Notes: generated by a model from the sequence alone, not told the origin. Positions 1,111 through 27,172 are shown, numbered from the stretch's first letter. The stretch is DNA of 64,000 nucleotides from Lachnospiraceae bacterium UBA3866 (GCA_002392345.1 DGGU01000042.1:14358-78357); one strand, 5' to 3'. Numbers and translations: made by a program.

Positions 1111-1138
1111 CGTATGGGCGAGCTATGCGAACCCGGAA
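1111..1138 (+). repeat. Degenerate REP copy (CGTATGGGCGAGCTATGCGAACCCGGAA)
   Basis: 24/28 identity to the copy at 11480 (CGTAGGGGCGAGCACTGCGAGCCCGGAA). It has the same placement, between a stop codon and the next RBS. Confidence 0.55.
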
Positions 1139-1152
1139 AAGGAGATAAATTT

Positions 1153-2343
1153 ATGGATTTCAGTAAGGCAATAGAAAAATTAAGTAAACTAAATTTCAAA
1201 AATATGTACGAGGGAGATTTTTTCCTAACTTGGGACAAGACTGATGATGAGATAAAGGCAGTATGGGAAGTTGCAGATGCACTTCGTGCACTCCGTGAGA
1301 GAAATATCTCTACTAAAGTATTTGACTCAGGACTTGGTATATCACTATTCCGTGATAATTCAACAAGGACAAGATTTTCATTTGCATCAGCTTGCAATCT
1401 TCTTGGACTTGAAGTTCAAGACCTCGACGAAGGTAAATCACAGATTGCTCACGGTGAGACTGTTCGTGAGACAGCCAATATGATTTCATTTATGGCCGAT
1501 GTAATTGGTATAAGAGATGACATGTATATTGGTAAAGGCCACACATATCAAAAAGCTGTAGTTGATGCAGTTACTGAAGGCTATAAGGCGGGAGTTCTTG
1601 AGCAGAAGCCTACTCTTGTAAATCTTCAGTGTGATATAGATCACCCAACGCAAGTGATGGCAGATGCACTTCATGTTATCCATGAGTTTGGCGGCATCGA
1701 GAATCTTAAAGGCAAAAAGATTGCTATGACTTGGGCTTATAGCCCATCATATGGAAAGCCTCTCTCAGTTCCACAAGGTGTAATTGGACTTTTCACTCGT
1801 CTTGGTATGGATGTGATGCTCGCTCATCCAGAAGGCTATGAAGTTATGCCAGAGGTTGAAGAAGTTGCAAAGAAAAATGCAGCTGCTACAGGTGGCAAGT
1901 TCACTAAGACAAATGATATGAAAGAAGCATTCAAAGATGCTGATATAGTATATCCAAAATCATGGGCACCATTTAAAGCAATGGAGAAGAGAACTGATCT
2001 CTATGGCAAAGGCGATATGGATGGTATAAAAGCACTTGAGAAAGAACTTCTTGCACAAAATGCAAATCATAAAGACTGGGCTTGCACAGAAGAGATGATG
2101 AAACTTACTAAAGGTGGTAAAGCCCTCTATCTTCACTGTCTACCTGCAGACATAACTGGAGTATCTTGTGAGACAGGAGAAGTTGATGCATCAGTTTTTG
2201 ATAGATATAGAGATCCACTTTATAAGGAAGCAAGTTTTAAACCATATGTAATAGCAGCTATGATATTCCTTGCTAAGTTTAAAGATCCTATAGCAACACT
2301 TAAAGCACTTGAAAAAGATGGCAAAGTAAGAGTACACGCATAA
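1153..2343 (+). CDS. ygeW: YgeW-type knotted carbamoyltransferase (ATCase/OTCase family)
   Basis: STRTRFSF carbamoyl-phosphate motif, DHPTQ and HCLPA motifs. Start moved to ATG 1153, which follows RBS GGAGA; the track start at 1114 lies inside the REP copy. Confidence 0.85.
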   Translation: MDFSKAIEKLSKLNFKNMYEGDFFLTWDKTDDEIKAVWEVADALRALRERNISTKVFDSGLGISLFRDNSTRTRFSFASACNLLGLEVQDLDEGKSQIAHGETVRETANMISFMADVIGIRDDMYIGKGHTYQKAVVDAVTEGYKAGVLEQKPTLVNLQCDIDHPTQVMADALHVIHEFGGIENLKGKKIAMTWAYSPSYGKPLSVPQGVIGLFTRLGMDVMLAHPEGYEVMPEVEEVAKKNAAATGGKFTKTNDMKEAFKDADIVYPKSWAPFKAMEKRTDLYGKGDMDGIKALEKELLAQNANHKDWACTEEMMKLTKGGKALYLHCLPADITGVSCETGEVDASVFDRYRDPLYKEASFKPYVIAAMIFLAKFKDPIATLKALEKDGKVRVHA

Positions 2344-2370
2344 AACTAAAAATAAAGGAGAACATTAGTT

Positions 2371-2967
2371 ATGAAAGAATTAAAAAAGATGAAAATTATG
2401 ACATCAATAGTAGGTGTCCTTATGATTGTTGTAGGAATTTTGTTTTGTATATATCCTATAACATCATCATATGCTGCAGTTAAAGCTATTGCAGCTTTAT
2501 TTGTGGTATCAGGCATAATCAATATCGTTGGACATTTCCAATATAAGAATCTTGAAATGCTTCTCAACCGCAATGGTTTCTTAATTGGAATTTTAGATAT
2601 TATAATGGGTATAGTGATGTTTAAAGAAGAAACCATATCTATACTTGCGCTTTCTATAATGTTCAGCATGTATGTATTTTTTGCTGCTATAGAGATGTGT
2701 GAATATTCTGTAGCTATGAAGAGAGCAGGTGTAGATGGTTGGCTTCTAACTATGATTTTTTCTATATTATTAATCATAGATGCTGTAGTTATGATCGCCT
2801 TCCCAGGACTTGCATTTGGAACCATGACATTCTGGGTTGCATTCACTATGATGTTCACAGGAATATCTATCTTAGTTGGTGTATATAAAGTTAGCAATGC
2901 AGTTACAGTACATAAGGCTAATATGCAAAAAGTTGTAAATGATGTTAATAATACATTAAATGATTAG
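2371..2967 (+). CDS. HdeD/DUF308-like multi-pass membrane protein
   Basis: About six hydrophobic helices with repeated G-I-L-x-I-x-x-G-I type segments; RBS AAGGAG lies 11 nt upstream. Confidence 0.55.
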   Translation: MKELKKMKIMTSIVGVLMIVVGILFCIYPITSSYAAVKAIAALFVVSGIINIVGHFQYKNLEMLLNRNGFLIGILDIIMGIVMFKEETISILALSIMFSMYVFFAAIEMCEYSVAMKRAGVDGWLLTMIFSILLIIDAVVMIAFPGLAFGTMTFWVAFTMMFTGISILVGVYKVSNAVTVHKANMQKVVNDVNNTLND

Positions 2968-5900
2968 GTGAAGCTAGTAGCGACTAAAATAAAAAAACAT
3001 ATTGCGTGGATTTTAATCATTGCGATGATCCTCTCTTCGAATGCAATTATGGTTTTTGCAGAAGAGAATAATTTTATTGATGATTATAAAGAAACTGAAG
3101 GCAATAAAGTAGATAATTATGCTGTATATGAATCTGAGGAAGCTGAGATTATATATGAAGAAGAAACTATTGTCGGTAGTAGTAGTATTTTGCACGATGA
3201 AGAAGAATTAGAAGAAACGTTAGAAGAAGAATCAGAAGAAGAGTCAGAAGAAGAGTCAGAAGAAGATTCAATTGGTACTATATTATCAACAGAAAGTGAT
3301 GCTGACGAAGTTGGCTTTGAAGAGACTGAGATTGCTGCGTCAGTTAGGCAAACCCGAATAGCCAACGAAGAATTATTTGGCGCTGGGATACACAGTCATA
3401 AGATCTGTGGTGCAACTGGATCATGTATGCATACAACAGATATAGTTCCTGAACACATAGATGTCATAGATACTTGGCAAGCTCTGTCAACCCCATCAGA
3501 TGTATTAGATGATTCCATGGGACCATATTTTTATCTAACAGAAGATATGCAACTTGCTATTAGAGCAGTAACTAGGGACACATACATTTGTCTAAATGGA
3601 CATAAATTGACATATGCGGAAGACATCTACCAACCAACTTCTCATGTATATATATGTAATTGTAAGGATTATGCAGAAATTGATGATGCGGATTATAGCA
3701 TTACAACAAGTACTCAAATATATGGAAACATAACATATAGTTATGGTAAGCATATAGTAGATATTATTCCAAGCAATAGTAATCAAAACGTATATTTTTA
3801 TGGTGTTAATTTTGAACGAACTGGATCGGAAGAAGAAGAGGATTTTGTAATTGGTAGTAGTGATAGCTGCAAGATTACACTTGAAAAAGTAACTATGTTA
3901 AATTGCACCAAAACTTCCAATTTTTATACAGCAGGTTCAACGAATGGAGTTTTCAATATCATAGATTCTACTTTTGATTATGGAGGCAATGTAGTTTCTT
4001 ATGCTACTGCATCGCAAGTTAGAGGCTTCTTCCATGCACCTTATCAATCTAGTTATGCTGGAAATACTATCAATTTTAAAGGCAACAATGTTTTTAAAAA
4101 TTTAGTTTTAGAAAATCTTAGTTTGTTTAATACACAGAAAGTTGGACCATTACCAACTGATGCTGGCATACTTGGAGTTAATGGATTTGATATAAATGTT
4201 CTTGATGGAAATACTACATTTAGCAATATAGAGTTGATTGGCGATTATGCCAAAAATTTTATAGATAATAATGGTGGTGGCAAGTTAACTGTAAGTGAAT
4301 CTGCAACACTTGAATTAAATGGTATTGATTTAACTAATGATACATTTGAAGATCAGGATAGATTTTTATTATATCTTGATAACAATGATGAGATAAATGG
4401 AAATCTCATTATTGCTGGTTGCAAGAATAATGGTGATTATGGAAGGATTATAGATTTAAAGTCAAGTGAGACTTCACTTCCAGGTTATTTTAATATTGGT
4501 GATGGTAAATTATATATAGCTGATAATGAGGATGGTACCAGTGATAGTAATGTTGCAGGTATATTTTCAGAAGTTCCTGTGGCGACGAATTCAAGCATTT
4601 TAAATGTTGCCAGTGGCAGGACGATTAATATAGAAACATATATTGAAGGTGTGGCCATGAGATATGTTGCTACCTCATCTGAATACCGCACCGGCAATGT
4701 AATATCTAGTTGGTCTTTAGTTTCAGGAGGAAGGACTTGCCAAGATGTATTCACTGCTTATGATTGGCCAGATGATGATAGAAACTTTGGAGTCATACTT
4801 GATGGAGAAACTGTAAAACTTAAGGAAGTAACGACATATAAAGTTGAATTTAGAAATAGATATAAGGCGACTGATAGTTCTATGCCTAAAAGCATGACTA
4901 TTAATGAAAATTGTAAAATTCCTAAAGTTGCCACGCCAAGTGTAGGAGCTTATGAGACATTTCTAGGCTGGTATACCGATCTAACTGACGATACAACAAA
5001 GTGGGATTTTGATATAGACAGAGTAACTGAAGATATTACCTTATATGAAAAAGTACAAAGCACTTTAAAATATAGGCTAGCATTTGACCCAAATGGCGGA
5101 GAAGGCTCTATGCCTGCATTAGATAATATGCCAGTTGGCGATTATATCTCGCTCGCTACTAATTCATATACCAAAGAAGGATATATATTTGTAGGCTGGT
5201 GTGAGGATAGTGCCCACGCTACACCTGATCTTTGGGAAACTGTGGATCATTGGCATGATAAGGCGACGGATTTTATATATTGGACCGATGCGGCAGATAC
5301 TACAAAAACTATCTATGCTGTGTGGGTAATAAATCATATGCATAAGATCTGTGGTGTGACTGGTGACTGTACTCATTATATAGAAGGAAATAATCATACG
5401 AGTGCTGTGAATTATGCACCATTAGTAGATGCGGCAGACTTGAATGATACGACAAAGAGTGCGTACTTATATCTCAATTCAGATATAACGATTACAAGTG
5501 AACTTACAAGAACAATTTATCTATGTTTGAATGGGCATACTTTAAATACCGATGTCTCTTTATCCAATATCTATATATGTAATTGTGGCGTAACTTCTAA
5601 TATTGTAGCGAAGAGTTATGTTATAGAAGGCGATGCAGAAGTTTATGGTCAAAATAAAAATATATCTTTTATAGCATCGCATAGTTTCGTTAGACTTACA
5701 ACTGATGATGTTGATAGTGTATTTTTGTCAGATGTAACACTAAGTGGAGAACTTACAGATGGTGTACATGTCAATGATATAGTACATGCAAGTAGCAGTG
5801 TTGTATATTTCAACGATGTCAATATTGATGATGTAACTGTATATAGAAGCATATTTAGAAATGGTGGCAATGCAACAATAAAATTCATTGACAATACATT

Positions 5901-8900
5901 TGATAGTATCAACACTCCTGATCGCTCTCTCTTTTCTTCGGTGGGCGTTGCGACAGTTGGAAATGTACATTTTATTGATGACAATATGTTAAGGAATATA
6001 AACTTACGTGGTACACCTAGTGTGCCTATCTATGATGACGCTGATAAATGGTCGTTATATATGATAGGTGGCACTACTGCATTTGATGACATCGGATTTG
6101 CTGATACTACTTTAGGATATATATTCCCAAAGCATGTGAAATTGGGCGATGCGTTTACTTTAGTTAATAAGCCTGCGACCTTATCAATTATTAATTGTAA
6201 GATTTTTAGACATGAAATGGATGAATCGATTATTGATTTAAATGATTTTGATGGCAATGTATTTGAAATATATGGTAACTTAATAATTAAAAATAATAAG
6301 TATGTAAATTGCAATACTCAGGCTTCTGTATTATCTATAATTAACACTCGAGATAAACAGATAAGGCTTGGTAGTAATTCCTATATAATTATAAGTGGCA
6401 ATAAACCATATAGTGACCAAGAAGGTATAATCGAGCAAACTGATATAAATGGACAACATATATATAGTTTATATAGTACTATAGCAGATAATGCAACTCC
6501 AATTTTTATGATGGCGAATGGGGCTACATTTGATACAAATATGTATATTGACGGCGTTGCATTTTCAACTGCAAGTAATCACAAAGGGCATATAATCAAC
6601 AACAATACTAATAGAAAATGTTTCGTTGCAGATACTTATAATTCATCTGACCCCACAACTGCATTAGACCTTGAATCAGGTCTATCAGATGATGGACTAC
6701 ATGTCGTAGTTGATGAACCTAAAGTATATTATAGTATAAAGTATAATGCCAATGGCGGAAGTGGCACGATGGCAGATAGAATGGACATATTGACAGGACT
6801 CACGATAACTCTTGATGCCAATGCTTATACGAAAACTGGTTATAGATTTGTAGGCTGGGCAACAAATAGTTCTGCTACTACTGCAACTTGGGTAGATTCT
6901 GATACAACTTTTTCACATAATGCAACACAAGGCGAAGAGTATAATCTATATGCAGTGTGGAAGGTAAATAAATATAAAGTTAGATACAATAAAAATGAAG
7001 GTGGCGGAGTTATAGCGACTGGCTCTACTCCATCCGAGATGACGGGTTATTCGACGATTAATTTAACTCTCGCAGATAATACCGGTGGAGATCAAGGCTC
7101 GCTAACATCGACGGGATATTATCTCGTAGGTTGGAATGAAAATGAATATGGTACAGGAGCTGAATATACACTCGGTGGAACCATGAATAAGATTATAGAT
7201 GCGGCAGATGATGGTATGACTATTGATCTATATGCAATGTGGAGCGATAAGGTACCATATGTTATAGTTTTAGATAATAATGGTGGGGTAGGTGCTGAGG
7301 TAGACATACCTGCAAAATCTGATCAGCCAAAAAGTATCCCTACTAATACATTTACTAGAGAGAATTATAAATTCATAGGCTGGAGTGAAGATGCTAGTAT
7401 AGATCCCACTACATTTGACCCATCTGTATCTGGAAATTATCGAGCAACTGATTCGGTTGTTAAAACAATCGATGAGGCTCACAAGTATATGAGGGTGACA
7501 CTTTATGCTGTATGGAAAAGGATAACTTATACACTTCATTATGAAGGAAATGGTCATGATGGCGGAACTATTCCTAGTGATATGGTAGGTGTGGAATCAG
7601 GCGCTACTATACAGTTATCACCATCAGTTCCACTTAAAACCAATTACAAGTTCATTGGATGGGCAACTAGCAGTACAGCATCGGTAGCTTCGTATCAGCC
7701 TAGCGGTAATATAAGTTTTACAATTGGCGAAAGTGAATATGATACTGGATCTGCAGAACCTGTAAGAAAAATATATGCTGTATGGAAAAAGATAACATAT
7801 ACATTAATTTATGATGGAAATGGTGGTGATGGTGGCGTAGTTCCTGATGCCCGTGAGAATATAGAATCAGGAGAGACTATTCAGCTTTCAACATCAAGAC
7901 CTACTAGGACAGATTATAAGTTCCTTGGCTGGTCAGCTAATAGCACTTCAGTAACCTCATCCTATCTACCAGGCGGGGATATAAGTCATATTATACCAGA
8001 AGACGAATATGATCCTGGATCTGCAGAACCTACAAGGACTATATATGCAGTGTGGATAAGGCTTACATATCAAGTTGTATATAATGGAAATGGGAATGAC
8101 GGAGGAACTGTTCCTCCAGGACACACTGGATATTCTGGAACTGCAACTACACTTAGAACCAATGAAAATAATCTAACGAAAACTGGATTATATTTAAATG
8201 GTTGGTCTACATCATCAACTGTAATAGTTGCTGATTATGAACTAGGTGGTTCTATGCAGATAACTATTGCCGAAGCTGAAGATGGAGATCCGATTACACT
8301 TTATGCAGTCTGGGGTAGAGTGCCATATAAAATTAGACTTAATAGCAATGGCGGTGCAGGAAGTGCTAAAGAATATAAAGCTCAGTCAGAAGTTGATTTT
8401 GCACTACCTAATAATACATTTACAAGGTCTAATTATACTTTTGTAGGTTGGAGTGAAAATAGTAACATAAATGCCAATACATTTGATCCATCTGCATCAG
8501 GAAATTATCCAGTGTCAGGCGGAGTAGTTTATAGAGTAGTTTCAGAGTCTGATGCCAACACATACTATGATTTATATGCTATATGGAAATATAATGGTGG
8601 TGGAGGTCGAGTTGTGCCAAGCGGAGGCGGTGGTGGTGGCGGAGGCGGAGGCGGTGGCGGCGGCGGAATTGGCGGAGCAAGTCTTGTAAGTAGCACTTTA
8701 ACAATGGCTGAAGGACCTTCTATAAATGCTTTATCAATTAGAGCAACAAAAACGATTAAAGAGACAGTAAGTCAAAGTAACAGTTCTTGGCAATATGATG
8801 TAATTAATAATAAATGGAGACTGCATGGCAATAATATGTCAGGTCAAGAAATAGATATATATGATGGCTTCTATCTCATGGGCAATAAAACATATTACTT

Positions 8901-9120
8901 TGATGGCGATGGATTCATGTACACAGGATATGTTAAAACCATGGATGGCAGAACATATTATTTTAGTGTAGATAAGCAAGTCGACGAAGGAGTTATGGCT
9001 GTTGGGTGGAAGAAGATACAGGATAGTTGGTATTATTTTGAACCAGATGGCTCTATGCTTAAAAATGGCACTACACCTGATGGACATAAAGTTGACTCCA
9101 ATGGTGTGTGGCAGCAATAA
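2968..9120 (+). CDS. Giant secreted cell-surface protein (2050 aa)
   Basis: GTG start with signal peptide MKLVATKIKKHIAWILIIAMILSSNAIMVFA and an acidic EESEE tract. Two copies of the HxHKICGxTGxCxH ... (I/L)CLNGHxL ... YICNC module. About 12 repeats with YxxNGG...Y.F.GW...LYAVW signatures (Flg_new/InlB B-repeat type), then a G14 run. The tail has YYF/GW cell-wall-binding repeats (GNKTYYFDGDGFMYTG, GWKKIQDSWYYFEPDGSM). Confidence 0.85.
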   Translation: MKLVATKIKKHIAWILIIAMILSSNAIMVFAEENNFIDDYKETEGNKVDNYAVYESEEAEIIYEEETIVGSSSILHDEEELEETLEEESEEESEEESEEDSIGTILSTESDADEVGFEETEIAASVRQTRIANEELFGAGIHSHKICGATGSCMHTTDIVPEHIDVIDTWQALSTPSDVLDDSMGPYFYLTEDMQLAIRAVTRDTYICLNGHKLTYAEDIYQPTSHVYICNCKDYAEIDDADYSITTSTQIYGNITYSYGKHIVDIIPSNSNQNVYFYGVNFERTGSEEEEDFVIGSSDSCKITLEKVTMLNCTKTSNFYTAGSTNGVFNIIDSTFDYGGNVVSYATASQVRGFFHAPYQSSYAGNTINFKGNNVFKNLVLENLSLFNTQKVGPLPTDAGILGVNGFDINVLDGNTTFSNIELIGDYAKNFIDNNGGGKLTVSESATLELNGIDLTNDTFEDQDRFLLYLDNNDEINGNLIIAGCKNNGDYGRIIDLKSSETSLPGYFNIGDGKLYIADNEDGTSDSNVAGIFSEVPVATNSSILNVASGRTINIETYIEGVAMRYVATSSEYRTGNVISSWSLVSGGRTCQDVFTAYDWPDDDRNFGVILDGETVKLKEVTTYKVEFRNRYKATDSSMPKSMTINENCKIPKVATPSVGAYETFLGWYTDLTDDTTKWDFDIDRVTEDITLYEKVQSTLKYRLAFDPNGGEGSMPALDNMPVGDYISLATNSYTKEGYIFVGWCEDSAHATPDLWETVDHWHDKATDFIYWTDAADTTKTIYAVWVINHMHKICGVTGDCTHYIEGNNHTSAVNYAPLVDAADLNDTTKSAYLYLNSDITITSELTRTIYLCLNGHTLNTDVSLSNIYICNCGVTSNIVAKSYVIEGDAEVYGQNKNISFIASHSFVRLTTDDVDSVFLSDVTLSGELTDGVHVNDIVHASSSVVYFNDVNIDDVTVYRSIFRNGGNATIKFIDNTFDSINTPDRSLFSSVGVATVGNVHFIDDNMLRNINLRGTPSVPIYDDADKWSLYMIGGTTAFDDIGFADTTLGYIFPKHVKLGDAFTLVNKPATLSIINCKIFRHEMDESIIDLNDFDGNVFEIYGNLIIKNNKYVNCNTQASVLSIINTRDKQIRLGSNSYIIISGNKPYSDQEGIIEQTDINGQHIYSLYSTIADNATPIFMMANGATFDTNMYIDGVAFSTASNHKGHIINNNTNRKCFVADTYNSSDPTTALDLESGLSDDGLHVVVDEPKVYYSIKYNANGGSGTMADRMDILTGLTITLDANAYTKTGYRFVGWATNSSATTATWVDSDTTFSHNATQGEEYNLYAVWKVNKYKVRYNKNEGGGVIATGSTPSEMTGYSTINLTLADNTGGDQGSLTSTGYYLVGWNENEYGTGAEYTLGGTMNKIIDAADDGMTIDLYAMWSDKVPYVIVLDNNGGVGAEVDIPAKSDQPKSIPTNTFTRENYKFIGWSEDASIDPTTFDPSVSGNYRATDSVVKTIDEAHKYMRVTLYAVWKRITYTLHYEGNGHDGGTIPSDMVGVESGATIQLSPSVPLKTNYKFIGWATSSTASVASYQPSGNISFTIGESEYDTGSAEPVRKIYAVWKKITYTLIYDGNGGDGGVVPDARENIESGETIQLSTSRPTRTDYKFLGWSANSTSVTSSYLPGGDISHIIPEDEYDPGSAEPTRTIYAVWIRLTYQVVYNGNGNDGGTVPPGHTGYSGTATTLRTNENNLTKTGLYLNGWSTSSTVIVADYELGGSMQITIAEAEDGDPITLYAVWGRVPYKIRLNSNGGAGSAKEYKAQSEVDFALPNNTFTRSNYTFVGWSENSNINANTFDPSASGNYPVSGGVVYRVVSESDANTYYDLYAIWKYNGGGGRVVPSGGGGGGGGGGGGGGGIGGASLVSSTLTMAEGPSINALSIRATKTIKETVSQSNSSWQYDVINNKWRLHGNNMSGQEIDIYDGFYLMGNKTYYFDGDGFMYTGYVKTMDGRTYYFSVDKQVDEGVMAVGWKKIQDSWYYFEPDGSMLKNGTTPDGHKVDSNGVWQQ

Positions 9121-11479: not shown

Positions 11480-11505
11480 CGTAGGGGCGAGCACTGCGAG
11501 CCCGG
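11480..11505 (+). repeat. REP copy (CGTAGGGGCGAGCACTGCGAGCCCGG)
   Basis: Consensus GTAG head plus the imperfect palindrome GGGCGAGC-ACT-GCGAGCCC. It fills the 38-nt xdhA-xdhB spacer and abuts RBS GGAAGGAG. Confidence 0.85.
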
Positions 11506-13005: not shown

Positions 13006-13076
13006 GGCGAAGCCCAACATAGGGTGAGCGTCCGAGCGGAGCAACAAAGTGCCCTTGGGGTGCACTGCGAGCCCGG
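13006..13076 (+). repeat. Long-form REP unit (GGCGAAGCC linker + ATAG head + about 39-nt hairpin cargo + ACTGCGAGCCCGG)
   Basis: Near-identical to units at 22193..22262 and, inverted, 27064..27135. It starts directly after the xdhC stop codon. Confidence 0.8.
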
Positions 13077-16595: not shown

Positions 16596-19500
16596 ATGAG
16601 CGAAGTAATGAAAATTATGCCATTCAAGAATTTGATGGAGTGGGTTATTGATGAGAATAAAACCCGCAAGTCTGTTTTTGGTGTGAAGAAGTACTATAAG
16701 GCTGATGTTAAGAAAGGCTTCAACATTTATAAAGAGCATATAGAGACACCAATTGGACCTGCAGCTGGACCAAATTCTCAACTTGCTCAAAATATCATTG
16801 CAAGCTATATGGCCGGTGCAAGATTCTTTGAACTAAAGACTGTTCAAGAGATGACTGGTGCTGACATGGTTAAATGTGTTAATAAGCCATGTATTAAAGC
16901 AGATGATGAATGCTACAATTGCGAATGGTCTACTGAGCTCTATATGGACGAAGCGATTCAGGAATACATCAAAGCTTGGGTCATGCTTCACTTCATTTCA
17001 AAAGAATTTGAATTAGGCGCAACTGATGGTTTTGTATTCAACATGTCAGTTGGCTATAACCTTGATGATATAAAGAAAAAAGACACAGATAAGTTTATAG
17101 AGTGTATGAAAGATGCGAATAAGCATCCTGTATTTAAAGGGGCAATCGATTATCTTAAGGCTCATGTAAATGAGTATAAGAATTTTAAATTAGAAGATAT
17201 AGAAAAAATTCCAAATCAAGTATGCCATTCTGTGACGGAATCTACTCTTCATGGTTGTCCTCCTGCTGAGATAGAGAGGATAGCTATGTATCTTATGGAA
17301 GAGAAGGGTCTCAATACATTTATCAAATGCAATCCAACTCTTCTCGGATACGAGAGAGCTCGTAAAATTTTAAACGACATGGGCTACACATATATTGCAT
17401 TTACTGATTCGCATTTCTTGACTGATCTTCAGTGGGATGATGCTGTTAAAATGCTTAAGAGACTTATGGAACATGCAGAGAAGAAAGGACTTACTTTTGG
17501 CGTAAAACTGACTAATACTTTCCCTGTAGATGTAACAAGAAATGAATTGCCATCTCAGGAGATGTATATGTCAGGGAAATCTCTTTTTGCACTTTCGACT
17601 AAGGTCGCTGAGATGCTTACAACAGAGTTTAACGGCAAACTTAAGATAGCTTATTCTGGTGGCGCTGATTATTTTAATATAGATAAATTAGTTGATGCTG
17701 GTATCTGGCCTGTGACAGTTGCTACAACGATTCTAAAGCCAGGTGGATATGATAGATTCCATCAGATGGCAGAAAAGGTTATGGCCAATGTATCTGACAT
17801 GGTTACATTTAACGGAGTAGATGTAAAGAAAGTTCAAAATCTTTCTGAAGAATGTAAAAAAGATAAACATCTTGTTAAAAAGTCACTTAGATTTAAACAA
17901 AATAAAATCAAGGTTAAAAATCCACTCACTGATTGCTTCATGTCACCTTGCTCCATGACTTGCCCTATAAATCAAGATATATCTCTTTATAATTATTATG
18001 TAAAGAATAATGAATTTGAAAAAGCACTTGAAGTAATATACCGCACGAATCCACTACCTTTTATGACTGGAAATATCTGTGCTCACCCTTGTACAACTTC
18101 ATGTATGAGAAATCATTATGAAGAGAATGTTGACATTCGTGGCAATAAACTTCTTGCAGCGAGAAACGCCTTTGATAAAGTCGTTAAAAATGTTAAGCCA
18201 GTTTCGCCTAATGGTAAAACTGTAGCAGTTGTCGGTGCTGGCCCTGGTGGTATAGCTGTTGCTACTTTCTTAGCGAGGGATGGATATGCAGTCACTGTAT
18301 ATGATAAAGAGAAGAAAGCTGGCGGAACAGTGTCTAATATAATTCCTCATTTTAGACTACCAGAGGAAGAAATTGAAAAAGATGTAGAGTATGCTAAGGC
18401 TTGGGGAGCAAAATTCGAACTTGGAGTTGAGATAAAAAGTATAAAAGAACTTAAAGATAAATTTGATTATGTTGTTATTGCTATAGGAGCACATAAAGAG
18501 AGCAAGGCTGGATTTACTGGCGATGACAAATGCATAAATGCTCATAAATTCCTTATAGATTTCAATGAGAAGAATGGCAAGCTTGATATAGGAAAGAATG
18601 CTGCAGTTATCGGTGCTGGCAATACTGCTATGGATGCAGTTCGTGCAGCAAAGAGAACTTCAGGTGTAGAGAATGTATACCTTGTATACAGAAGAAATAT
18701 GTTAAATGCACCTGCTGATGAAGATGAGATCAATCTTGCAATTAAAGATGGTGTGCAGATTAAAGAATTACTTGCGCCAGATAGTTATGAAAATGGTGTA
18801 CTTAAATGTAAAGTTTGTAAACTTGGACCTATCGGTGCTGATGGAAGAAATAGCATAGACGTAACAAACGATATAGCTGAGATTAAAGCGGATATTGTCA
18901 TAGCATCTATCGGAGAAAAAGTTGATGGTGAATTCTATAAATCAAATGGTATAGATGTAAATGATAAAGGACTTCCAGTTCTTGATTCTATGATGCAGAC
19001 ATCTATTAAAGATGTATATGCTATAGGCGATGGTGCACTTGGTGCTTCTATTATAGTAAAAGCTATAAGGGATGCAAAACTTGTATCAGTGGCAATAAGT
19101 GGCAAGTCGTTCGAAGGTAATGAAGTGCCAAATGAAAAAGTTGAAAATATATATAAAGACCGAGCAATACTTAAAGATCGAGTGGAAGTAAGTGCTAATA
19201 ATGTAGGGGCTGTAAGCCATGCGAGCCCTAATGATGCAAGCAGGTGTTTACACTGCAACAAAGTCTGTGAGACTTGCAACGAAGTATGTCCGAATCGTGC
19301 AAATGTACATATAGAACTTAAAGATGGCAGTCACCAGATAGTTCATGTAGACAGTATGTGTAATGAGTGTGGAAATTGTGCAGTATTTTGTCCATATGAT
19401 AGTCGTCCATATAAAGATAAATTCACTTTATTCTTTGATGAGGCTGCTATGAATGATTCTGAAAATAGTGGATTCTATTTTAAAGATGAAAACCTTGCAG

Positions 19501-19619
19501 TTGTAAGGATAGATGGAGTGAAATCTGAATATAAATTTCATACTAGCGATGCAAAACTCGGGAAGCTTGCTGAAGTCATAGATACTATAAAAGAAAAACA
19601 TTCGTACATGGTGTTTTAG
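16596..19619 (+). CDS. ygfK: YgfK-type putative selenate reductase / glutamate-synthase-like Fe-S flavoprotein
   Basis: 1007 aa with Rossmann motifs VVGAGPGGIAVA and VIGAGNTAMD. Cys clusters CxxxCPxxQD, and a C-terminal CLHCNKVCETCNEVCP ... CNECGNCAVFCP. Confidence 0.8.
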   Translation: MSEVMKIMPFKNLMEWVIDENKTRKSVFGVKKYYKADVKKGFNIYKEHIETPIGPAAGPNSQLAQNIIASYMAGARFFELKTVQEMTGADMVKCVNKPCIKADDECYNCEWSTELYMDEAIQEYIKAWVMLHFISKEFELGATDGFVFNMSVGYNLDDIKKKDTDKFIECMKDANKHPVFKGAIDYLKAHVNEYKNFKLEDIEKIPNQVCHSVTESTLHGCPPAEIERIAMYLMEEKGLNTFIKCNPTLLGYERARKILNDMGYTYIAFTDSHFLTDLQWDDAVKMLKRLMEHAEKKGLTFGVKLTNTFPVDVTRNELPSQEMYMSGKSLFALSTKVAEMLTTEFNGKLKIAYSGGADYFNIDKLVDAGIWPVTVATTILKPGGYDRFHQMAEKVMANVSDMVTFNGVDVKKVQNLSEECKKDKHLVKKSLRFKQNKIKVKNPLTDCFMSPCSMTCPINQDISLYNYYVKNNEFEKALEVIYRTNPLPFMTGNICAHPCTTSCMRNHYEENVDIRGNKLLAARNAFDKVVKNVKPVSPNGKTVAVVGAGPGGIAVATFLARDGYAVTVYDKEKKAGGTVSNIIPHFRLPEEEIEKDVEYAKAWGAKFELGVEIKSIKELKDKFDYVVIAIGAHKESKAGFTGDDKCINAHKFLIDFNEKNGKLDIGKNAAVIGAGNTAMDAVRAAKRTSGVENVYLVYRRNMLNAPADEDEINLAIKDGVQIKELLAPDSYENGVLKCKVCKLGPIGADGRNSIDVTNDIAEIKADIVIASIGEKVDGEFYKSNGIDVNDKGLPVLDSMMQTSIKDVYAIGDGALGASIIVKAIRDAKLVSVAISGKSFEGNEVPNEKVENIYKDRAILKDRVEVSANNVGAVSHASPNDASRCLHCNKVCETCNEVCPNRANVHIELKDGSHQIVHVDSMCNECGNCAVFCPYDSRPYKDKFTLFFDEAAMNDSENSGFYFKDENLAVVRIDGVKSEYKFHTSDAKLGKLAEVIDTIKEKHSYMVF
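19203..19228 (+). repeat. REP-like sequence embedded in frame within ygfK (GTAGGGGC-TGTAAGCCA-TGCGAGCCC)
   Basis: Both GC-rich flanks (8 and 9 nt) are identical to the REP consensus. Orientation matches the neighbouring + copies. It encodes VGAVSHASP. Confidence 0.6.
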
Positions 19620-19622: not shown

Positions 19623-22190
19623 ATGGCTAAAATTTTTGTAAATGGAAAAGAATATGAGTTAGCTGATGACAAAAAAGTCATGAGTTTTCTTAGAGATGAA
19701 CTTAAACTCTTGTCAGTGAAAGATGGTTGTGCAGAAGGTGCTTGTGGAGCATGCACTGTACTTGCTGACGGCATCCCTACTAAAGTATGTGTGCAGACTG
19801 CTAAAAGAATGGAAGGCAAGCATATCTTGACTGTGGAAGGGCTAACCGATAGAGAGAAGGATGTATTTAAATATGCATTCGGCAAGGCTCAGGCTGTACA
19901 ATGCGGTTTCTGCATACCTGGTATGGTTATGTGTGCGAAGGCACTAATTGACAAGAATAATAATCCAACTCGTATAGAAGTAGCTGATGCAATTAAAAAC
20001 AATTATTGTCGCTGCACTGGTTACAAAAAAATAATTGATGCCATAATTCTTGCTGCAAAGATATTTAGAGAAAATACAGAAGTTAAATTTGAAAATAAAG
20101 TAATGGCCTTAGGTGAGAGTGATGTAAGAGTAGATGCTCCTGATAAGACCATGGGTACTGCAAAATATGCCGATGACATTTACCTTGATAATATGATTTA
20201 TGGCTCATGTGTACGTTCTCTGTATCCAAGAGCAAGAGTTAAAAACATCGACATAGAAGAGGCTAAGAAAGTTCCTGGAGTTGTCGGGATACTTACTGCT
20301 AAAGATTTACCAGGAAAAATGACTGGACACTTAAAGAAAGATTGGTTTGCACTTATCGATATTGGGGACATTACTCACTCACTTGGAGATGCAATTGTTG
20401 CAGTGTATGCTAAAGATAAAGAAACTCTAGAAAAGGCGAAGGCTCTTGTTAAAGTTGAGTATGAAGTGTTGCCTGCAGTATTTGATAGATATGAGGCAAT
20501 GAAAGAAGGAGCTCCTATAGTTCATGAAGAAGAAGAGACTAAGACAAATATATTAGTTGAAAAACATATAAAGAGAGGTGACCCTGATACTGCAATTAAA
20601 AATGCAAAATTCAAAGTTACCAATACCTATAAGACTCCATATACTGAGCATGCCTTCCTTGAACCAGAATGTGCTGTAGCACTTCCACTTCAAGATGGTG
20701 GTGTTATGATATACTCTTCAGATCAAAGTACTTATGATACAAGAAGAGAATGCAGTAACATCACAGGACTTCCAGAAGAAAAGATTATAGTAGAAAATTC
20801 ATATGTCGGTGGTGCATTTGGCGGAAAAGAAGATATGACTATACAACCACTTACCTGTGTAGCTGCTATGAAATATGGCGTAGCAGTCAAAATGAAACTT
20901 ACAAGACAGGAGAGTATGCAACTTCATCCAAAGCGTCATCCTATGGATGTAACTCTTACCACAGCTTGCGATGAAAATGGAATACTAGTTGGCATGAAAT
21001 GTGAAGTAGTATCTGATACTGGTTGTTATGCTTCACTTGGTGGACCAGTGCTAGAAAGGGCTTGTACACATGCCGCAGGACCATATAATTATCAAAATGT
21101 AGAGATACACGGAACAGCTGTATATACTAATAATCCGCCAGCAGGAGCATTTAGAGGCTTTGGTGTAACGCAAACTTGTTTTGCAACTGAGATGAATATA
21201 AATAAGCTTGCTGACATGGTAGGCATAGATTATTTTGAAATTAGAAGAAGAAATGCTATTAAGCCTGGTGATGTATTACCTAATGGCCAAGTCGCTGATG
21301 CAAGTACGGGCTTAATTGAGACACTTGATGCAGTAAAAGATATATATTATAAAAATAAATATGTTGGCATAGCGTGTGCGATGAAAAATGCAGGCGTTGG
21401 TGTTGGACTTCCTGATTATGGAAGATGCAAAATCCTTGTAAATGATGGAAAAGTTGTGATTCATTGCGGAGCTTCAGAAAATGGACAAGGTATAGGACAA
21501 GTTTTAGTGCAAACTGTAAGCAATGAATTAAAACTTCCAATTGATAAGATAGTTTGGAAAAATTCTAATAGTAAGAATGATCCTGATAGTGGCACAAGTT
21601 CTGGTAGTCGTCATACACTTATTTCTGGCGAAGCGTGTCTTAGAGCGACAAGAGAATTATATAAAGATTATATAGCAAATGATAAAGATCTAAACAAATT
21701 AAATGGTAAAGAATATGTAGCGGATTTCTTTGAGCCAACAGATAAACTCGGAGCGGATGTAGAGTTCCCTGTATCACATATTGGTTATGGTTTTGCAACC
21801 CAGCTTTGCATTCTTAATGATGATGGTACGATAAAAGAGATGGTAGGAGCTCATGAAGTTGGTAAGGCTATCAACAAACTTGGTGTTGAAGGACAGATAG
21901 AAGGTGGCATGGTGATGAGCATGGGTTATGCACTTACAGAAGACTTAAAAGTAATTGATGGCAAGGTAAATGCGAAATATGGAACTTATGGATTATTCCG
22001 TGCTAATAAAGTCCCAGAGCTCACTTCAATTGTTGTTGAAAAAGAAGGTATGAAGTGGGCCAATGGCGCTATAGGTTGTGGTGAGATTACAGCCATCCCT
22101 ACAGCCCCAGCTATCGCCCTCGCATATTATAGAAAAGATGGCGAGTTCCGCACGGAGCTCCCACTCAAAAACACGCCATATAGAAAATAG
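19623..22190 (+). CDS. xdhD: Selenium-dependent molybdenum hydroxylase (XdhD-like; 2Fe-2S domain fused to Mo-binding body)
   Basis: N-terminal CAEGACGACTV, CGFCIPG, CRCTGY, followed by hammerhead and Mo-hydroxylase domains (GGAFGGKED). Adjacent to ygfK. Confidence 0.8.
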   Translation: MAKIFVNGKEYELADDKKVMSFLRDELKLLSVKDGCAEGACGACTVLADGIPTKVCVQTAKRMEGKHILTVEGLTDREKDVFKYAFGKAQAVQCGFCIPGMVMCAKALIDKNNNPTRIEVADAIKNNYCRCTGYKKIIDAIILAAKIFRENTEVKFENKVMALGESDVRVDAPDKTMGTAKYADDIYLDNMIYGSCVRSLYPRARVKNIDIEEAKKVPGVVGILTAKDLPGKMTGHLKKDWFALIDIGDITHSLGDAIVAVYAKDKETLEKAKALVKVEYEVLPAVFDRYEAMKEGAPIVHEEEETKTNILVEKHIKRGDPDTAIKNAKFKVTNTYKTPYTEHAFLEPECAVALPLQDGGVMIYSSDQSTYDTRRECSNITGLPEEKIIVENSYVGGAFGGKEDMTIQPLTCVAAMKYGVAVKMKLTRQESMQLHPKRHPMDVTLTTACDENGILVGMKCEVVSDTGCYASLGGPVLERACTHAAGPYNYQNVEIHGTAVYTNNPPAGAFRGFGVTQTCFATEMNINKLADMVGIDYFEIRRRNAIKPGDVLPNGQVADASTGLIETLDAVKDIYYKNKYVGIACAMKNAGVGVGLPDYGRCKILVNDGKVVIHCGASENGQGIGQVLVQTVSNELKLPIDKIVWKNSNSKNDPDSGTSSGSRHTLISGEACLRATRELYKDYIANDKDLNKLNGKEYVADFFEPTDKLGADVEFPVSHIGYGFATQLCILNDDGTIKEMVGAHEVGKAINKLGVEGQIEGGMVMSMGYALTEDLKVIDGKVNAKYGTYGLFRANKVPELTSIVVEKEGMKWANGAIGCGEITAIPTAPAIALAYYRKDGEFRTELPLKNTPYRK

Positions 22191-22192
22191 AG

Positions 22193-22422
22193 TTGGCGAA
22201 GCCACACGTAGGGTGAGCGCCCGAGCGAAGCGACAAAGTGCCCTCGGGGTGCACTGCGAGCCTTTGGCGAAACCACCCGTAGGGGGAAAACAGTCCAGTG
22301 GACTGTTTTCCACTGCGAGCCCTTGGCGAAGCCATTTGTAGGGGCGAGCACTGCGAGCCCTTGGAACAACAACCACAGGTGAGCATATTACCATAACCGT
22401 AGGGGCGAGCACTGCGAGCCCG
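22193..22422 (+). repeat. Tandem array of four same-orientation REP units (BIME-like)
   Basis: GTAG heads at 22208, 22279, 22338 and 22399, each ending in ACTGCGAGCC(C). Units are joined by TTGGCGAAGCC linkers. The cargo between head and tail varies. Confidence 0.9.
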
Positions 22423-22432
22423 TTAATGTAAT

Positions 22433-23083: not shown

Positions 23084-23084
23084 T

Positions 23085-23109
23085 CGTAGGGGCGAGCACT
23101 GCGAGCCCG
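23085..23109 (+). repeat. REP copy immediately upstream of the RAYT gene
   Basis: CGTAGGGGCGAGCACTGCGAGCCCG, a perfect consensus lying 13 nt before the RAYT start codon. Confidence 0.9.
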
Positions 23110-23122
23110 TTATAAATGCAAC

Positions 23123-23563
23123 ATGGAATTAAAAACAAGAAAGAATTTAAGACTAAAAGAATATGATTATTCACAACAAGGTTGGTACTTTATAACAATT
23201 TGTACTAAAAATATGCATAACTATTTTGGGCATATCGTTGATAATAAAGTAATGCTAAATGATGAGGGCATCAAACTTAAGAAGATTATTGATGATTATA
23301 ATAATGTAAGTGATAAAGTTAAAAATGAATTCTATCAAATAATGCCGAATCATTTACATATTATAATAAGGATCGAATCGGATGGAGAGCATAGTATTGG
23401 ATCAATAGTTTCAGGACTAAAGGGTAAGTGCACAAGAGAACTTAAGATTAAAGACTTATGGCAAAAGAATTATTATGAAAGAGTTATTAGAGATCAGAAA
23501 GAATATGATAGTATTGTTAAATATATAGCAGAGAACCCATTTAGAGATAAGTATACTTGGTAA
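23123..23563 (+). CDS. REP-associated tyrosine transposase (RAYT; IS200-like HUH/Y1 family)
   Basis: 146 aa with HUH motif in MPNHLHIIIRI and a catalytic-Tyr block LWQKNYYERVIRDQKEYDSIVKYIAENP. Flanked by REPs. Confidence 0.85.
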   Translation: MELKTRKNLRLKEYDYSQQGWYFITICTKNMHNYFGHIVDNKVMLNDEGIKLKKIIDDYNNVSDKVKNEFYQIMPNHLHIIIRIESDGEHSIGSIVSGLKGKCTRELKIKDLWQKNYYERVIRDQKEYDSIVKYIAENPFRDKYTW

Positions 23564-24337: not shown

Positions 24338-24357
24338 TTGTTTATATTAGGCGTATT

Positions 24358-24378
24358 TGGGCTCGCAGTGCTCACTCG
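24358..24378 (-). repeat. Truncated inverted REP copy (GGGCTCGCAGTGCTCACTCGG)
   Basis: 15/15 match to the REP tail in reverse orientation; the GTAG head is degenerate. Confidence 0.6.
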
Positions 24379-24398
24379 GATAAAAGGATGTGTATTTT

Positions 24399-24584: not shown

Positions 24585-24595
24585 GGAGTGATTTT

Positions 24596-25521: not shown

Positions 25522-25530
25522 AATATGTTG

Positions 25531-25645
25531 CGGGCTCGCAGTGCTCGCACCTACGAAGAATGAGTAAGATTACGCCAGCGGGCTCGCAGTGCTCGCCCCT
25601 ACGGGTGGCTTCGCCAAGGGCTAGCAGTGCTCGCCCCTACGGTGG
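25531..25645 (-). repeat. Array of three inverted-orientation REP units
   Basis: CGGGCTCGCAGTGCTCGC(A/C)CCTAC at 25531 and 25579, GGGCTAGCAGTGCTCGCCCCTAC at 25618, and a GGCTTCGCC linker. Confidence 0.9.
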
Positions 25646-25679
25646 AGATTTTAAATATTTGTTGGTAATAATGTAAATA

Positions 25680-27062
25680 ATGATGAGAAAAGTATTGCTG
25701 AAAAATGGTATAATAGTTAGTGGGAAGAAGTGTTATACTTCTGATGTTTTGATTGAAGGGGAAAAGATAAAAAAAGTAGGAAAGAATATAAAGGTAACGG
25801 GCTCGCTGTGCGAGGTGGTTGATTGCACCGGAAAATATATTTTCCCTGGCTTTATAGATGGGCATACGCATTTTGATTTGTCGGTGGCAGGAACAACTAC
25901 CATAGATGATTTTAATAGTGGAACAAAGGCTGCCATAAGCGGTGGGACTACAACCATCATAGATTATGGAACTCAGTATAAGGGCGAGACACTAAAACAA
26001 GGTTTGAAGAATTGGCTTAATAAGGCAAAGGATGGAGTGTCATGCGACTTTGGAGTTCACATGTCAATCTCTGATTGGAATCCTAGAGTTAAAAATGAAG
26101 TGAAGGACATGGTAAAAGCCGGTGTCACTTCATTTAAATTATATACAACTTACGATATAAAACTTGATGATGATGATATGCTTGCTGCATTAACGGAGAT
26201 AGCTAAGTGTAAAGGAATCACAGGAGTCCACTGTGAAAATGATGGCATCATAAAAGATTTAAGAAGCGAAGTCAAAGGAACTGATAACAAAAAAGTAATC
26301 TCACATGCACTAACTAGACCATCTGTGGCAGAAGCCGACTGTGTAAATCGTCTTTCATATATGTCACACATTACAGGTGCAGCATTTCTAGCAGTCCATG
26401 TGACTTGTGAAGAAGCATTAAATGAAGTGAAACTCGCAAAGAAAAAAGGCTACAAGGTATACGGCGAGACTTGTCCGCAGTATCTTTTCTTTGATGATAG
26501 TGTATATAATAAGAGTTTTGATGAGTCAAGTAAATACGTATGTGCGCCACCAATTAGAAAGAAAAAAGACATTAAGGCTTTGTGGAAGGCACTTAATGAT
26601 GGAAGTATAGATATAGTTTCAACAGACCACTGTTCATTTACTAAAAAGCAAAAAGCACTTGGTAAAAATGACTTTAGAAAGATACCAGGTGGACTAAATG
26701 GTGTTGAGCAGAGAGGCATATTACTTTTTGATGCAGTTCAAAAGAAAAAAATTTCTATAGAGAGAATGTGTGAACTTTTATCTGAAAACCCTGCGAAACT
26801 TTTTGGTCTTTGGGATAGGAAAGGATTTGTAAAAAAAGGATATGACGCAGATCTTGTTATAATCGATCCAAAGAAAACCACTACCTTAAGCTTGAAGAAC
26901 CAAGTTTCAAAATCAGACTATTGTGCTTTTGAGGGTAAGAAGTTAAAAGGAAAAATTGATGGAGTATTCTTAAGAGGAAAGCAAGTTGTCGACCAAAATA
27001 AAAATATTACTGATGGCATAGGTAAGTATATAAAAAGAAAAGTGTATAAAGACGTTAACTAA
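25680..27062 (+). CDS. hyuA: D-hydantoinase/dihydropyrimidinase family (HyuA/YgeZ-like)
   Basis: 460 aa; PGFIDGHTHFD metal site; cyclic-amidohydrolase layout; belongs to the ygeW-ygfK neighbourhood. Confidence 0.8.
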   Translation: MMRKVLLKNGIIVSGKKCYTSDVLIEGEKIKKVGKNIKVTGSLCEVVDCTGKYIFPGFIDGHTHFDLSVAGTTTIDDFNSGTKAAISGGTTTIIDYGTQYKGETLKQGLKNWLNKAKDGVSCDFGVHMSISDWNPRVKNEVKDMVKAGVTSFKLYTTYDIKLDDDDMLAALTEIAKCKGITGVHCENDGIIKDLRSEVKGTDNKKVISHALTRPSVAEADCVNRLSYMSHITGAAFLAVHVTCEEALNEVKLAKKKGYKVYGETCPQYLFFDDSVYNKSFDESSKYVCAPPIRKKKDIKALWKALNDGSIDIVSTDHCSFTKKQKALGKNDFRKIPGGLNGVEQRGILLFDAVQKKKISIERMCELLSENPAKLFGLWDRKGFVKKGYDADLVIIDPKKTTTLSLKNQVSKSDYCAFEGKKLKGKIDGVFLRGKQVVDQNKNITDGIGKYIKRKVYKDVN

Positions 27063-27063
27063 T

Positions 27064-27172
27064 CGGGCTCGCAGTGCACCCCGAGGGCACTTTGTCGCTT
27101 CGCTCGGGCGCTCACCCTACGAATGGCTTCGCCAAGGGCTCGCAGTACGCTCACCCTACGGATGGCTAGCCC
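27064..27172 (-). repeat. Two inverted REP units (long form plus cargo-less form)
   Basis: The reverse complement of 27064..27135 equals unit 22193..22262 except for the linker. 27136..27159 is GGGCTCGCAGTACGCTCACCCTAC. Confidence 0.9.

Follow-up and report, generated by a model that had tools for sequence, protein, structure and literature searches.

Results

The repeats and the transposase-like gene of the window

The DNA analysed in this work, referred to below as the window, is a stretch of 64,000 nucleotides (nt) from a contig of Lachnospiraceae bacterium UBA3866 (GCA_002392345.1, DGGU01000042.1:14358-78357), and it contains in its first 27 kb a family of short GTAG-headed repeats resembling the repetitive extragenic palindromic (REP) elements, together with an open reading frame (ORF 23123..23563, + strand) for a 146 amino acid (aa) protein, which appears to be a REP-associated tyrosine transposase (RAYT, also called TnpA-REP). 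About 15 copies of the repeat had been described in the original prediction, and all 15 were recovered, with coordinates agreeing within 1-2 nt, when the window was searched by regular expressions and by nhmmer using a profile built from 268 copies. These 15 copies of Y-GTAGGGGCGAGCACTGCGAGCCC lie between positions 1112 and 27159, where none is expected by chance; 9 of them are on the + strand upstream of the ORF 23123..23563 and 6 are on the - strand within 4 kb downstream of it. The 25-mer CGTAGGGGCGAGCACTGCGAGCCCG similarly gave 7 matches in the window with up to 3 mismatches, compared with 0 in 100 shuffled sequences, and for the core ACTGCGAGCC there were 14 matches with at most 1 mismatch versus 1.0 expected. 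The right-hand 37 kb of the window had been described as free of copies, in agreement with which the nhmmer search with the 268-copy profile detected no significant copy to the right of position 27160. Past the right end of the window, its contig carries 2 more + strand copies, ~2 and ~8 kb beyond it, and the 7.6 kb of the contig to the left of the window contains none.

The RAYT-type protein

The protein encoded by ORF 23123..23563 carries the HUH motif NHLHIII, as predicted, and also the sequence WQKNYYERVIR. A comparison of this ORF with Y1 and RAYT profiles had been proposed as a check; it matches the Pfam family Y1_Tnp with 27.1 bits (cutoff 23), while its best match in NCBIfam is the equivalog REP_Tyr_transpos with 61 bits, which is below the cutoff of 80, the IS200 model scoring only 18 bits. 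The TnpA-REP protein of E. coli (4ER8) is matched by phmmer with E = 1.9e-6. For an AlphaFold2 (AF2) model of the protein (pLDDT 87.7), the structure 4er8_A is the best Foldseek match both by query-normalised TM-score and by root-mean-square deviation (TMq 0.63, 3.8 A, E = 3.4e-7), and the next 28 matches are all TnpA proteins of the IS200/IS605 family, IS608 and ISDra2 among them. In the alignment with the E. coli protein, H77 and H79 (PNHLHII) correspond to PEHMHCI, Y134 and N138 (VKYIAENP) correspond to Y115 and N119, and LWQKNYYERVIR aligns with IWQPRFWEHAIR of 4ER8, placing W113, Q114, E119, R120 and R123 opposite W94, Q95, E100, H101 and R104. The sequence WQxxYYERVIR, which had been taken for the tyrosine block, therefore corresponds to the block contacting GTAG, and the catalytic tyrosine is Y134 in VKYIAENP. 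The roles of the residues in this block have been described for RAYTs (PMC6006769, PMC8266576), and its pattern, viz. W-Q-x4-E/D-H/R-x2-R, sets the RAYTs apart from the TnpA proteins of IS200/IS605 elements. Seven residues (H77, H79, W113, Q114, R123, Y134 and N138) do not vary among 20 homologues, in which an N-terminal R-L-K-E-Y-D-Y motif is also kept, and the Lachnospiraceae clade comprises compact proteins (142-146 aa), whose HUH and Tyr motifs are not separated by an insert. Two homologues, with 62% and 56% identity to this ORF, are already auto-annotated as "REP element-mobilizing transposase RayT". Based on these profile matches, the alignments and the structural model, the assignment of ORF 23123..23563 as a Y1/HUH protein of the RAYT (TnpA-REP) type is supported, and a conserved GTAG-recognition block is in keeping with a repeat in which GTAG itself is strictly conserved.

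Boundaries and predicted fold of the repeat

The anatomy of the repeat was determined from 273 copies in sequence blocks of eight metagenome-assembled genomes (MAGs). The element is sharply bounded, with the 23 positions of GTAGGGGCGAGCACTGCGAGCCC being 82-100% conserved and both flanks being random, except that the position -1 is a pyrimidine. The GTAG head is nearly invariant (G 99%, T 98%, A 100% and G 97%) and the stem begins at the very next base, so the GTAG head that was ascribed to the copies holds for the family, although not for the copy at 24359, from which it is missing. The short form accounts for 217 of the 272 copies that could be anchored by their tail, and the other forms, of 41-69 nt, contain a central insert. 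The fold predicted for the single-stranded DNA (ssDNA) is GTAG followed by GGGC|GA|GC-ACT-GC|GA|GCCC, i.e. an outer stem of 4 bp is separated by a tandem G.A/A.G mismatch from an inner stem of 2 bp, which is closed by a loop of 3 nt, with an energy of -4.2 kcal/mol for the short form (z = -0.5 relative to shuffled sequences). The paired positions co-vary: for pair 7-19 the counts of copies are 243 (C-G), 36 (T.G), 16 (T-A) and 12 (C.A), with an odds ratio of 9 and p = 3.5e-7, and for pair 11-15 they are 288 (C-G) and 9 (T-A). Variability is greatest at positions 12-14, in the loop, and the G.A and A.G mismatches are retained in ~95% of the copies. Hence, the covariation supports the hairpin whereas the folding energy does not, and the imperfect palindrome of the original prediction appears to be real but weak. 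An alternative hairpin (GGG + GCG-loop-YGC + GAG bulge + CCC) was dropped, because the co-variation links T7 to A19 and T11 to A15, the partners predicted by the model with the G.A mismatches and not those of the alternative.

Linkage of the repeats with RAYT genes at six loci

Six RAYT loci were compared, viz. that of the window and the loci L102, L047, L099, L100 and L101, whose RAYTs show 73%, 68%, 62%, 58% and 53% identity to it, respectively. All six share the same layout, in which 1-2 REPs in the same sense as the gene lie 10-40 nt before its start codon and one or more inverted REPs, up to five in tandem, follow downstream. In the window, the upstream arm is the consensus REP at 23086..23108 (+), from which the RAYT start codon is 14 nt distant, and the downstream arm consists of the inverted copies (-) at 24359 and 25532-25640. 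The bracketing of a RAYT by its cognate inverted REPs is a defining property of a REPtron (PMC2817692, PMC6006769). The reversal of the repeat orientation that was noted at the RAYT gene is thus the canonical REPtron layout; however, it is local, as the copies in the distal part of the contig are again on the + strand. As the - strand copies all fall within the 4 kb that follow the RAYT, the reversal should be understood as a local feature of the REPtron and not as a genome-wide switch in polarity. Further, as all genes in the first 30 kb are on the + strand and the GC skew is positive throughout this region, the change in orientation reflects neither a switch in gene strand nor one in replichore.

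The sequences of the REPs at these loci differ in accordance with the RAYT lineage. The window, L102 and L047 carry GTAGGGGCGAGCACTGCGAGCCC (...GCGAGCACTGCGAGCCC), while the variant at L099 is ..GCGAAGCAYCGCGAGCCC, that at L100 is ..GCGAAGCTTYGCGAGCCC and those at L101 are ..GCGAACGCTTGCGGAGCCC and ..GCGAATGCTTGCAGAGCCC. The lineages have in common the head, the outer stem and an internal loop of the form GA(A)/GA, and the inner stem changes in a compensatory manner from GC/GC to CG/CG to TG/CA. Each RAYT lineage having its own REP variant is as expected if the two co-evolve. In a metagenome scan only distant relatives of the RAYT (30-39% identity) were found, and such distant RAYTs have canonical GTAGGGGCG...CGCCCC palindromes on their flanks, one of these being GTAGGGGCGAGCATTGCTCGCCCCTAC at L177; the REP of the window corresponds to this perfect palindrome except that GA replaces TC in its 3' arm. 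At L102 the surroundings of the gene are also syntenic with the window, with a xanthine dehydrogenase upstream and an orthologue of a 214-aa ORF (68% identity), a dihydropyrimidinase and a permease downstream; this synteny indicates that the RAYT is probably vertically inherited.

The fold and the Pfam family of the 146-aa protein are common to the TnpA proteins of IS608 and ISDra2, and on this basis the ORF with its flanking hairpins could be interpreted as an autonomous insertion sequence of the IS200/IS605 type, whose solo ends are the dispersed repeats. However, the flanking hairpins are inverted here, whereas IS200/IS605 elements have both of them on one strand, and no tnpB is present. 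In addition, the gene is syntenic in two species and occurs once per contig, whereas the 23-mer occurs at least 60-150 times, and the protein possesses the RAYT-specific WQ..E[HR]..R block. In view of these differences an insertion sequence of this kind is extremely improbable, the least probable of the explanations considered in this work.

Other observations concern further RAYTs and repeats. The MAG RGIG6119 (L028 6845-7421) contains a second RAYT, of ~34% identity, which has on both sides a perfect-palindrome REP of its own, GTAGGGGCGGATAYCATCCGCCC, and this REP is also found in frame in genes, where it is read as VGADTIRP. A third REP family is visible in translations, with the peptide VGDDILSS and the DNA pattern GTAGG.GACGA..TCGTC. 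At L100 the RAYT is located between hsdS and hsdR of a type I restriction locus, and three tandem REPs with a period of 30 nt (L100 5837-5919) lie antisense in hsdR, 1.4 kb downstream of the RAYT.

Dispersal, arrays and turnover

The motif is dispersed, as had been anticipated, and not confined to this locus: it recurs along the contig of the window, and in a scan for exact matches, in which each species was represented by one genome, the 22-mer was found in 92 stretches, which are spread over numerous contigs and come from eight MAGs, 7 of them from rumen Lachnospiraceae or Clostridia and 1 from Acidaminococcales. The copy numbers per MAG come from sampled 8-kb blocks and are lower bounds; two of the MAGs contain at least 149 and at least 64 copies, distributed over many contigs. 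For the genome of the window itself, ~82 kb of one contig were examined, which contain the 15 copies described above and the 2 beyond the window. In the blocks of the MAGs, neighbouring copies within 300 bp have the same orientation in 126 cases and the opposite orientation in 3, so that the inverted neighbours characteristic of REPINs or bacterial interspersed mosaic elements (BIMEs) make up only 3 of 129 pairs. The arrays contain up to 17 units with periods of 29-30, 39-40 or ~61 nt, and between the units there are A/C-rich spacers and regular truncated half-units. A CRISPR-like array was rejected, as the spacers are 7-8 nt long and conserved.

The number of repeats also differs between related sequences. 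Strains that are 97-100% identical to the window (L002 5145-5300 and L003 663-820) have three REPs, with a repeat unit of 61 nt, where the window has one (23084-23122, between the RAYT and the preceding gene of the chloramphenicol-acetyltransferase (CAT) family), and the number of REPs in this gap has thus changed recently. The REP at 11481..11503 is absent from the orthologous intergenic site of another species (L056), and in a comparison of filled and empty sites two orthologues are distinguished by a 48-nt in-frame insertion. The filled and empty pairs are too divergent for insertion junctions or target sites to be defined in them.

The head-to-tail orientation of 126 of the 129 neighbours, the regular periods of 29-30, 39-40 and ~61 nt and the variation of whole 61-nt units between strains are also what would be produced by slippage, unequal crossing-over or gene conversion of a simple repeat, in which case the association with a Y1 gene would be coincidental. 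However, single copies with unrelated flanks are present on dozens of contigs, all six RAYT loci are bracketed by inverted cognate repeats, and the second RAYT, in the MAG RGIG6119, lies between copies of another REP, which is likewise dispersed. It is therefore very unlikely that such processes account for the family.

In the MAG from Acidaminococcales (L074 1250-1305), two exact 23-mers with their heads facing each other lie 12 nt apart between convergent genes, and they are followed by a T-run. This pair could be REPIN-like or terminator-like, and its presence in this MAG, which represents another bacterial class, could be due to horizontal transfer or to a binning error.

Orientation relative to genes and insertions within coding sequences

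The orientation of the REPs follows the sense strand of the gene. In genes co-directional with the local GC skew, 75 clusters are in the sense and 14 in the antisense orientation, and in or beside head-on genes, i.e. those opposed to the local GC skew, 8 of 8 clusters (a small sample) are sense and hence on the C-rich strand. Targeting of the replication strand, as in the lagging-strand preference of IS608, is argued against by these 8 head-on clusters, within the limits of so small a sample.

Of the 139 clusters, 56 (~40%) are inside ORFs of at least 90 aa and are thus not extragenic, although for a minority of these 56 the ORF is spurious or the true start is located downstream of the copy. 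The intragenic clusters are almost always in the sense orientation and are read in two phases, viz. phase 0, which gives VGASTASP (26 clusters), and phase 1, which gives [C/R]RGEHCEP (17 clusters), the phase in which TAG is read being essentially absent. Comparison with solved homologues confirms two REP insertions in KsgA, in two different frames, and in MnmA a four-copy REP block and a single copy, both in frame. In the window, the copy at 19203 was found as predicted, but it is not extragenic: the 26-nt REP variant GTAGGGGC-TGTAAGCCAT-GCGAGCCC at 19203..19228 (+) lies in phase 0 (VGAVSHASP) within the 1007-aa YgfK-like ORF 16596..19619, in the linker before the C-terminal 4Fe-4S (ferredoxin) domain. 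In the alignment of YgfK-like proteins at this site, close homologues have variable REP-like inserts (e.g. VGASSASP) whereas homologues with 42-49% identity have none.

These patterns bear on the possibility that the repeats are selected functional RNA or DNA elements, such as mRNA stabilisers, modulators of translational coupling or protein-binding sites in operons, which the RAYT only seeds or maintains, or in whose spread it has no share. The orientation of the copies with respect to the genes (75 versus 14 clusters in co-directional genes and 8 of 8 in head-on genes) is in accordance with such a role, as are the location of many copies exactly between a stop codon and the following ribosome-binding site and the extreme conservation of the repeat across species whose orthologues are ~70-80% identical. 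However, the repeats have no match in Rfam, the copies are not terminator-like and their hairpin is weak; the existence of antisense copies and of two coding frames means that the copies as a whole are not accounted for by any one RNA or peptide function; and the REP variants found at the flanks of each RAYT lineage are those that co-evolution of protein and repeat predicts. A selected function as the explanation for the family is thus considered unlikely.

Individual copies and neighbouring genes in the window

The first copy, GTATGGGCGAGCTATGCGAACCC at 1112..1134 (+), is degenerate, with a GTATGG head (nhmmer E = 0.0056), and is located with a stop codon on one side and the ribosome-binding site of the next gene on the other. 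The consensus REP at 11481..11503 (+) begins 2 nt past the stop codon of ORF 9139..11478 and lies just 5' of the ribosome-binding site GGAAGGAG of ORF 11517... What had been described as a copy at 13006 is a mini-hairpin linker, GGGCGAAGCCC (13005..13015, +), and the REP head, ATAGG, is located 3 nt further 3', at 13019, where it begins a 56-nt long form (13019..13074, +), in which a 32-nt insert separates the 5' half from ACTGCGAGCCC. A head-to-tail cluster of four + strand copies occupies the gap between a xanthine-dehydrogenase-like gene and the CAT gene; it is opened by a 56-nt long form (22208..22263), which is followed by a 44-nt copy (22279..22322), whose centre is swapped for a 12-bp perfect hairpin (DNA fold -16.7 kcal/mol, z = -4.8), by a consensus REP (22338..22360) recovered by both the 25-mer search and nhmmer, and by a further consensus REP (22399..22421), with the CAT start codon 11 nt downstream. 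On the - strand, the copy at 24359..24381, ATCCGAGTGAGCACTGCGAGCCC, is without the GTAG head, but its 3' 17 nt are intact (nhmmer E = 6.5e-4 over them). It is followed by three inverted REPs arranged head-to-tail (25532-25554, 25580-25602 and 25618-25640), by an inverted 56-nt long form (27065-27120) detected by both regular expressions and nhmmer, and by an inverted 24-nt variant (27136-27159).

Inspection of the sequence further revealed the mini-hairpin linker TGGCGAAGCCA located 3 nt 5' of six REP heads, viz. at 13005-13015, 22194-22204, 22265-22275 and 22324-22334 on the + strand and at 25606-25616 and 27124-27134 on the - strand, the last of these separating the 27065-27120 and 27136-27159 copies. 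The linker and the REP thus form a composite repeat unit. The linker contains GCGAAGC, a very stable DNA mini-hairpin. The 56-nt long form, which occurs three times in the window, is made up of the 24-nt variant seen at 27136-27159 with a 32-nt internal insert, and it is also present in frame in a 2395-aa ORF of the MAG UBA3633 (L080 6840-6987). A scan of the whole window at the Rfam gathering thresholds gave no match. The REPs are also not terminator-like, as the sole such match in any of them is on the minus strand and is due to the inserted hairpin of the 44-nt copy.

The first 30 kb of the window (1-30000) constitute a cluster of genes for purine/pyrimidine catabolism, which includes subunits of the xanthine-dehydrogenase family, the YgfK-like protein, dihydropyrimidinase-like amidohydrolases, a xanthine/uracil permease and an adenine deaminase, along with a 2050-aa ORF (2968..9120) lacking any Pfam match. 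The GC-rich REP cluster is traversed in the antisense direction by a 128-aa ORF at 22026-22412 (-), which is called as a gene in the public assembly (L001) and is almost certainly spurious. The CAT-family gene (22433-23083) is tightly bracketed by the same-strand REPs at 22399 and 23086, and in the syntenic locus L102 a gene for a Na/H exchanger is found in its place. The possibility that the CAT gene is a REP-bounded mobile cassette is unsupported, as the exact CAT protein was found at this locus only. Between the RAYT and the 214-aa ORF, at 23582-24862, are an ORF for a zinc-ribbon membrane protein (251 aa) and a HicA/HicB toxin-antitoxin pair; these are absent from L102 and therefore are lineage-specific insertions next to the REPs.

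Discussion

Relationship to other REP/RAYT systems

GTAG-headed REPs and RAYTs have been surveyed mainly in Proteobacteria, and they are also recorded from Cyanobacteria, Chloroflexi, the PVC group (Planctomycetes, Verrucomicrobia and Chlamydiae) and Bacteroidetes, with RAYT groups being listed for many classes (PMC3733652, PMC2817692, PMC5581495, PMC6006769). No REP-rich genome from Firmicutes or Lachnospiraceae is described in these four surveys, and in the searchable literature there was no publication with this motif and none joining the terms "RAYTs" and "Firmicutes". The kind of system is already known; its Lachnospiraceae host appears to be new, and some of its habits are unusual.

The system shares with the REP/TnpA-REP system of E. 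coli (RAYT group 2, Quentin subclass 2.2; 4ER8; REPtron Ec) a GTAG directly adjoining an imperfect hairpin, in which an internal mismatch is conserved, the HUH motif, the Tyr-x3-Asn motif and the W-Q...E-[HR]...R block contacting GTAG, as well as the bracketing of the RAYT by inverted REPs and a gene that is apparently single-copy and vertically inherited. However, the REP here is 23 nt long, with a stem of 4+2 bp and a tandem G.A mismatch, whereas that of E. coli is ~35 nt long with an A-A/G-C bulge, and the arrays are head-to-tail whereas the orientation alternates in the BIMEs of E. coli. The two proteins are 21% identical and the score of the window protein falls below the NCBIfam equivalog cutoff. 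Moreover, its 146 aa do not include the C-terminal tail, of which G160 and E161 contact GTAG in E. coli (PMC8266576). The group 3/subclass 2.5 systems of Pseudomonas and Stenotrophomonas are similar in having short GTAG-headed REPs, a RAYT without a C-terminal extension and, within one genome, several families of REPs with a separate RAYT for each; their unit, however, is an inverted doublet (the REPIN), whereas inverted neighbours are 3 of 129 here, the stem is imperfect and the host belongs to the Lachnospiraceae and not to the Proteobacteria. With subclass 2.4 (group 4 of Bertels), which is known from Cyanobacteria, Bacteroidetes and scattered phyla and has long or "double-foot" REPs, the comparison is one of features. 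The likeness consists of the GTAGGGGCG...CGCCCCTAC double-foot REPs flanking the distant relatives of the window RAYT, the R-L-K-E-Y-D-Y N-terminal motif of its 20 homologues and the common occurrence of in-frame REP insertions; the differences are that the RAYT is a compact protein of 142-146 aa without an insert between HUH and Tyr and that the perfect symmetry of the REP is lost (TC -> GA in the 3' arm).

REPs within genes have already been recorded from a number of bacteria, Opitutus terrae and Rickettsia among them (PMC3733652), and the GTAG REPs of O. terrae and the Rickettsia palindromic elements resemble the copies described here in being in-frame palindromes in housekeeping genes, to which they add 8-30 residues in loops or linkers (PMC3733652). 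Their sequences and hosts are different, however, and here two peptides (VGASTASP and RGEHCEP) are specified by one 23-mer with a strong sense bias. The IS200/IS605 elements IS608 and ISDra2 are alike in the fold, in the HUH/Y1 ssDNA chemistry and in the guide tetranucleotide 5' of a hairpin, but those elements are autonomous and multi-copy, with both end hairpins on one strand and often with tnpB.

Interpretation and possible mechanism

The sequence and limits of the motif, its dispersal, the REPtron layout, the co-variation of RAYT and REP, the conservation of the catalytic and GTAG-contact residues and the polymorphism in presence and absence are established by the observations described above. 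Based on these results, we consider it highly probable that this rumen Lachnospiraceae genome harbours a REP/RAYT system, composed of a REPtron and a dispersed REP family, in which the 146-aa protein is the cognate ssDNA nuclease-ligase. The binding, cleavage and mobilisation of the repeats by this protein are inferred by analogy, and the mechanism outlined here is modelled on IS200/IS605 and E. coli TnpA-REP (PMC3479197, PMC8266576). The folded top strand of the REP would be bound by the RAYT, which would read the GTAG head by means of the W113-Q114...E119-R120...R123 block along with the mismatched stem. A nearby ssDNA site would then be cut by Y134, with formation of a covalent 5'-phosphotyrosine link and with the metal held by H77 and H79, and the rejoining of strands would lead to the duplication or relocation of REP units, with slippage probably also contributing to the growth of the arrays. 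Selection would remove those copies that introduce stop codons or harmful peptides, so that copies persist in short gaps between genes or, within genes, only in the two sense frames free of stops, and this selection would explain the biases in frame and strand.

Several points weigh against this interpretation. The stability of the short hairpin is no better than that of shuffled sequence (z = -0.5), the match to NCBIfam REP_Tyr_transpos (61 bits) is below its cutoff of 80, the identity to 4ER8, the only solved RAYT, is 21%, and the support for the role of the 146-aa protein is computational. The head-to-tail arrays could have arisen by replication slippage or unequal recombination, with no nuclease being required, and the sense-strand bias suggests that selection at the level of RNA or protein, beyond transposition alone, shapes the distribution of the copies. 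Lastly, the genome of the window is visible over only ~82 kb of one contig, and the genome-wide picture is derived from related species, none of the eight MAGs being more than 82% identical to the window in nucleotide sequence.

A bolder proposal, which we put forward tentatively and regard as rather doubtful, is that the system has a lifestyle different from that of the REPIN model, in which a single 23-nt REP, in place of an inverted doublet, replicates, forms head-to-tail arrays in an orientation coupled to transcription and not to replication, and is routinely inserted as in-frame modules of 8-10 codons (VGASTASP/RGEHCEP) in essential genes. The coupling to transcription may in that case result from insertion into the exposed non-template strand.

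Significance

The REP/RAYT system described here extends the host range of such systems to abundant rumen anaerobes, and its REP, with 23 nt and a conserved tandem G.A mismatch, offers a very small substrate for examining DNA recognition by a minimal RAYT of 146 aa. A natural data set is provided by KsgA, MnmA and further housekeeping proteins into which REPs are inserted in frame, and in practical terms these repeats break the assemblies of MAGs and inflate spurious ORF calls, such as that of the 128-aa ORF 22026..22412. Further, if the lifestyle proposed above is true, the RAYT would be a generator of protein-linker variation in rumen Lachnospiraceae.

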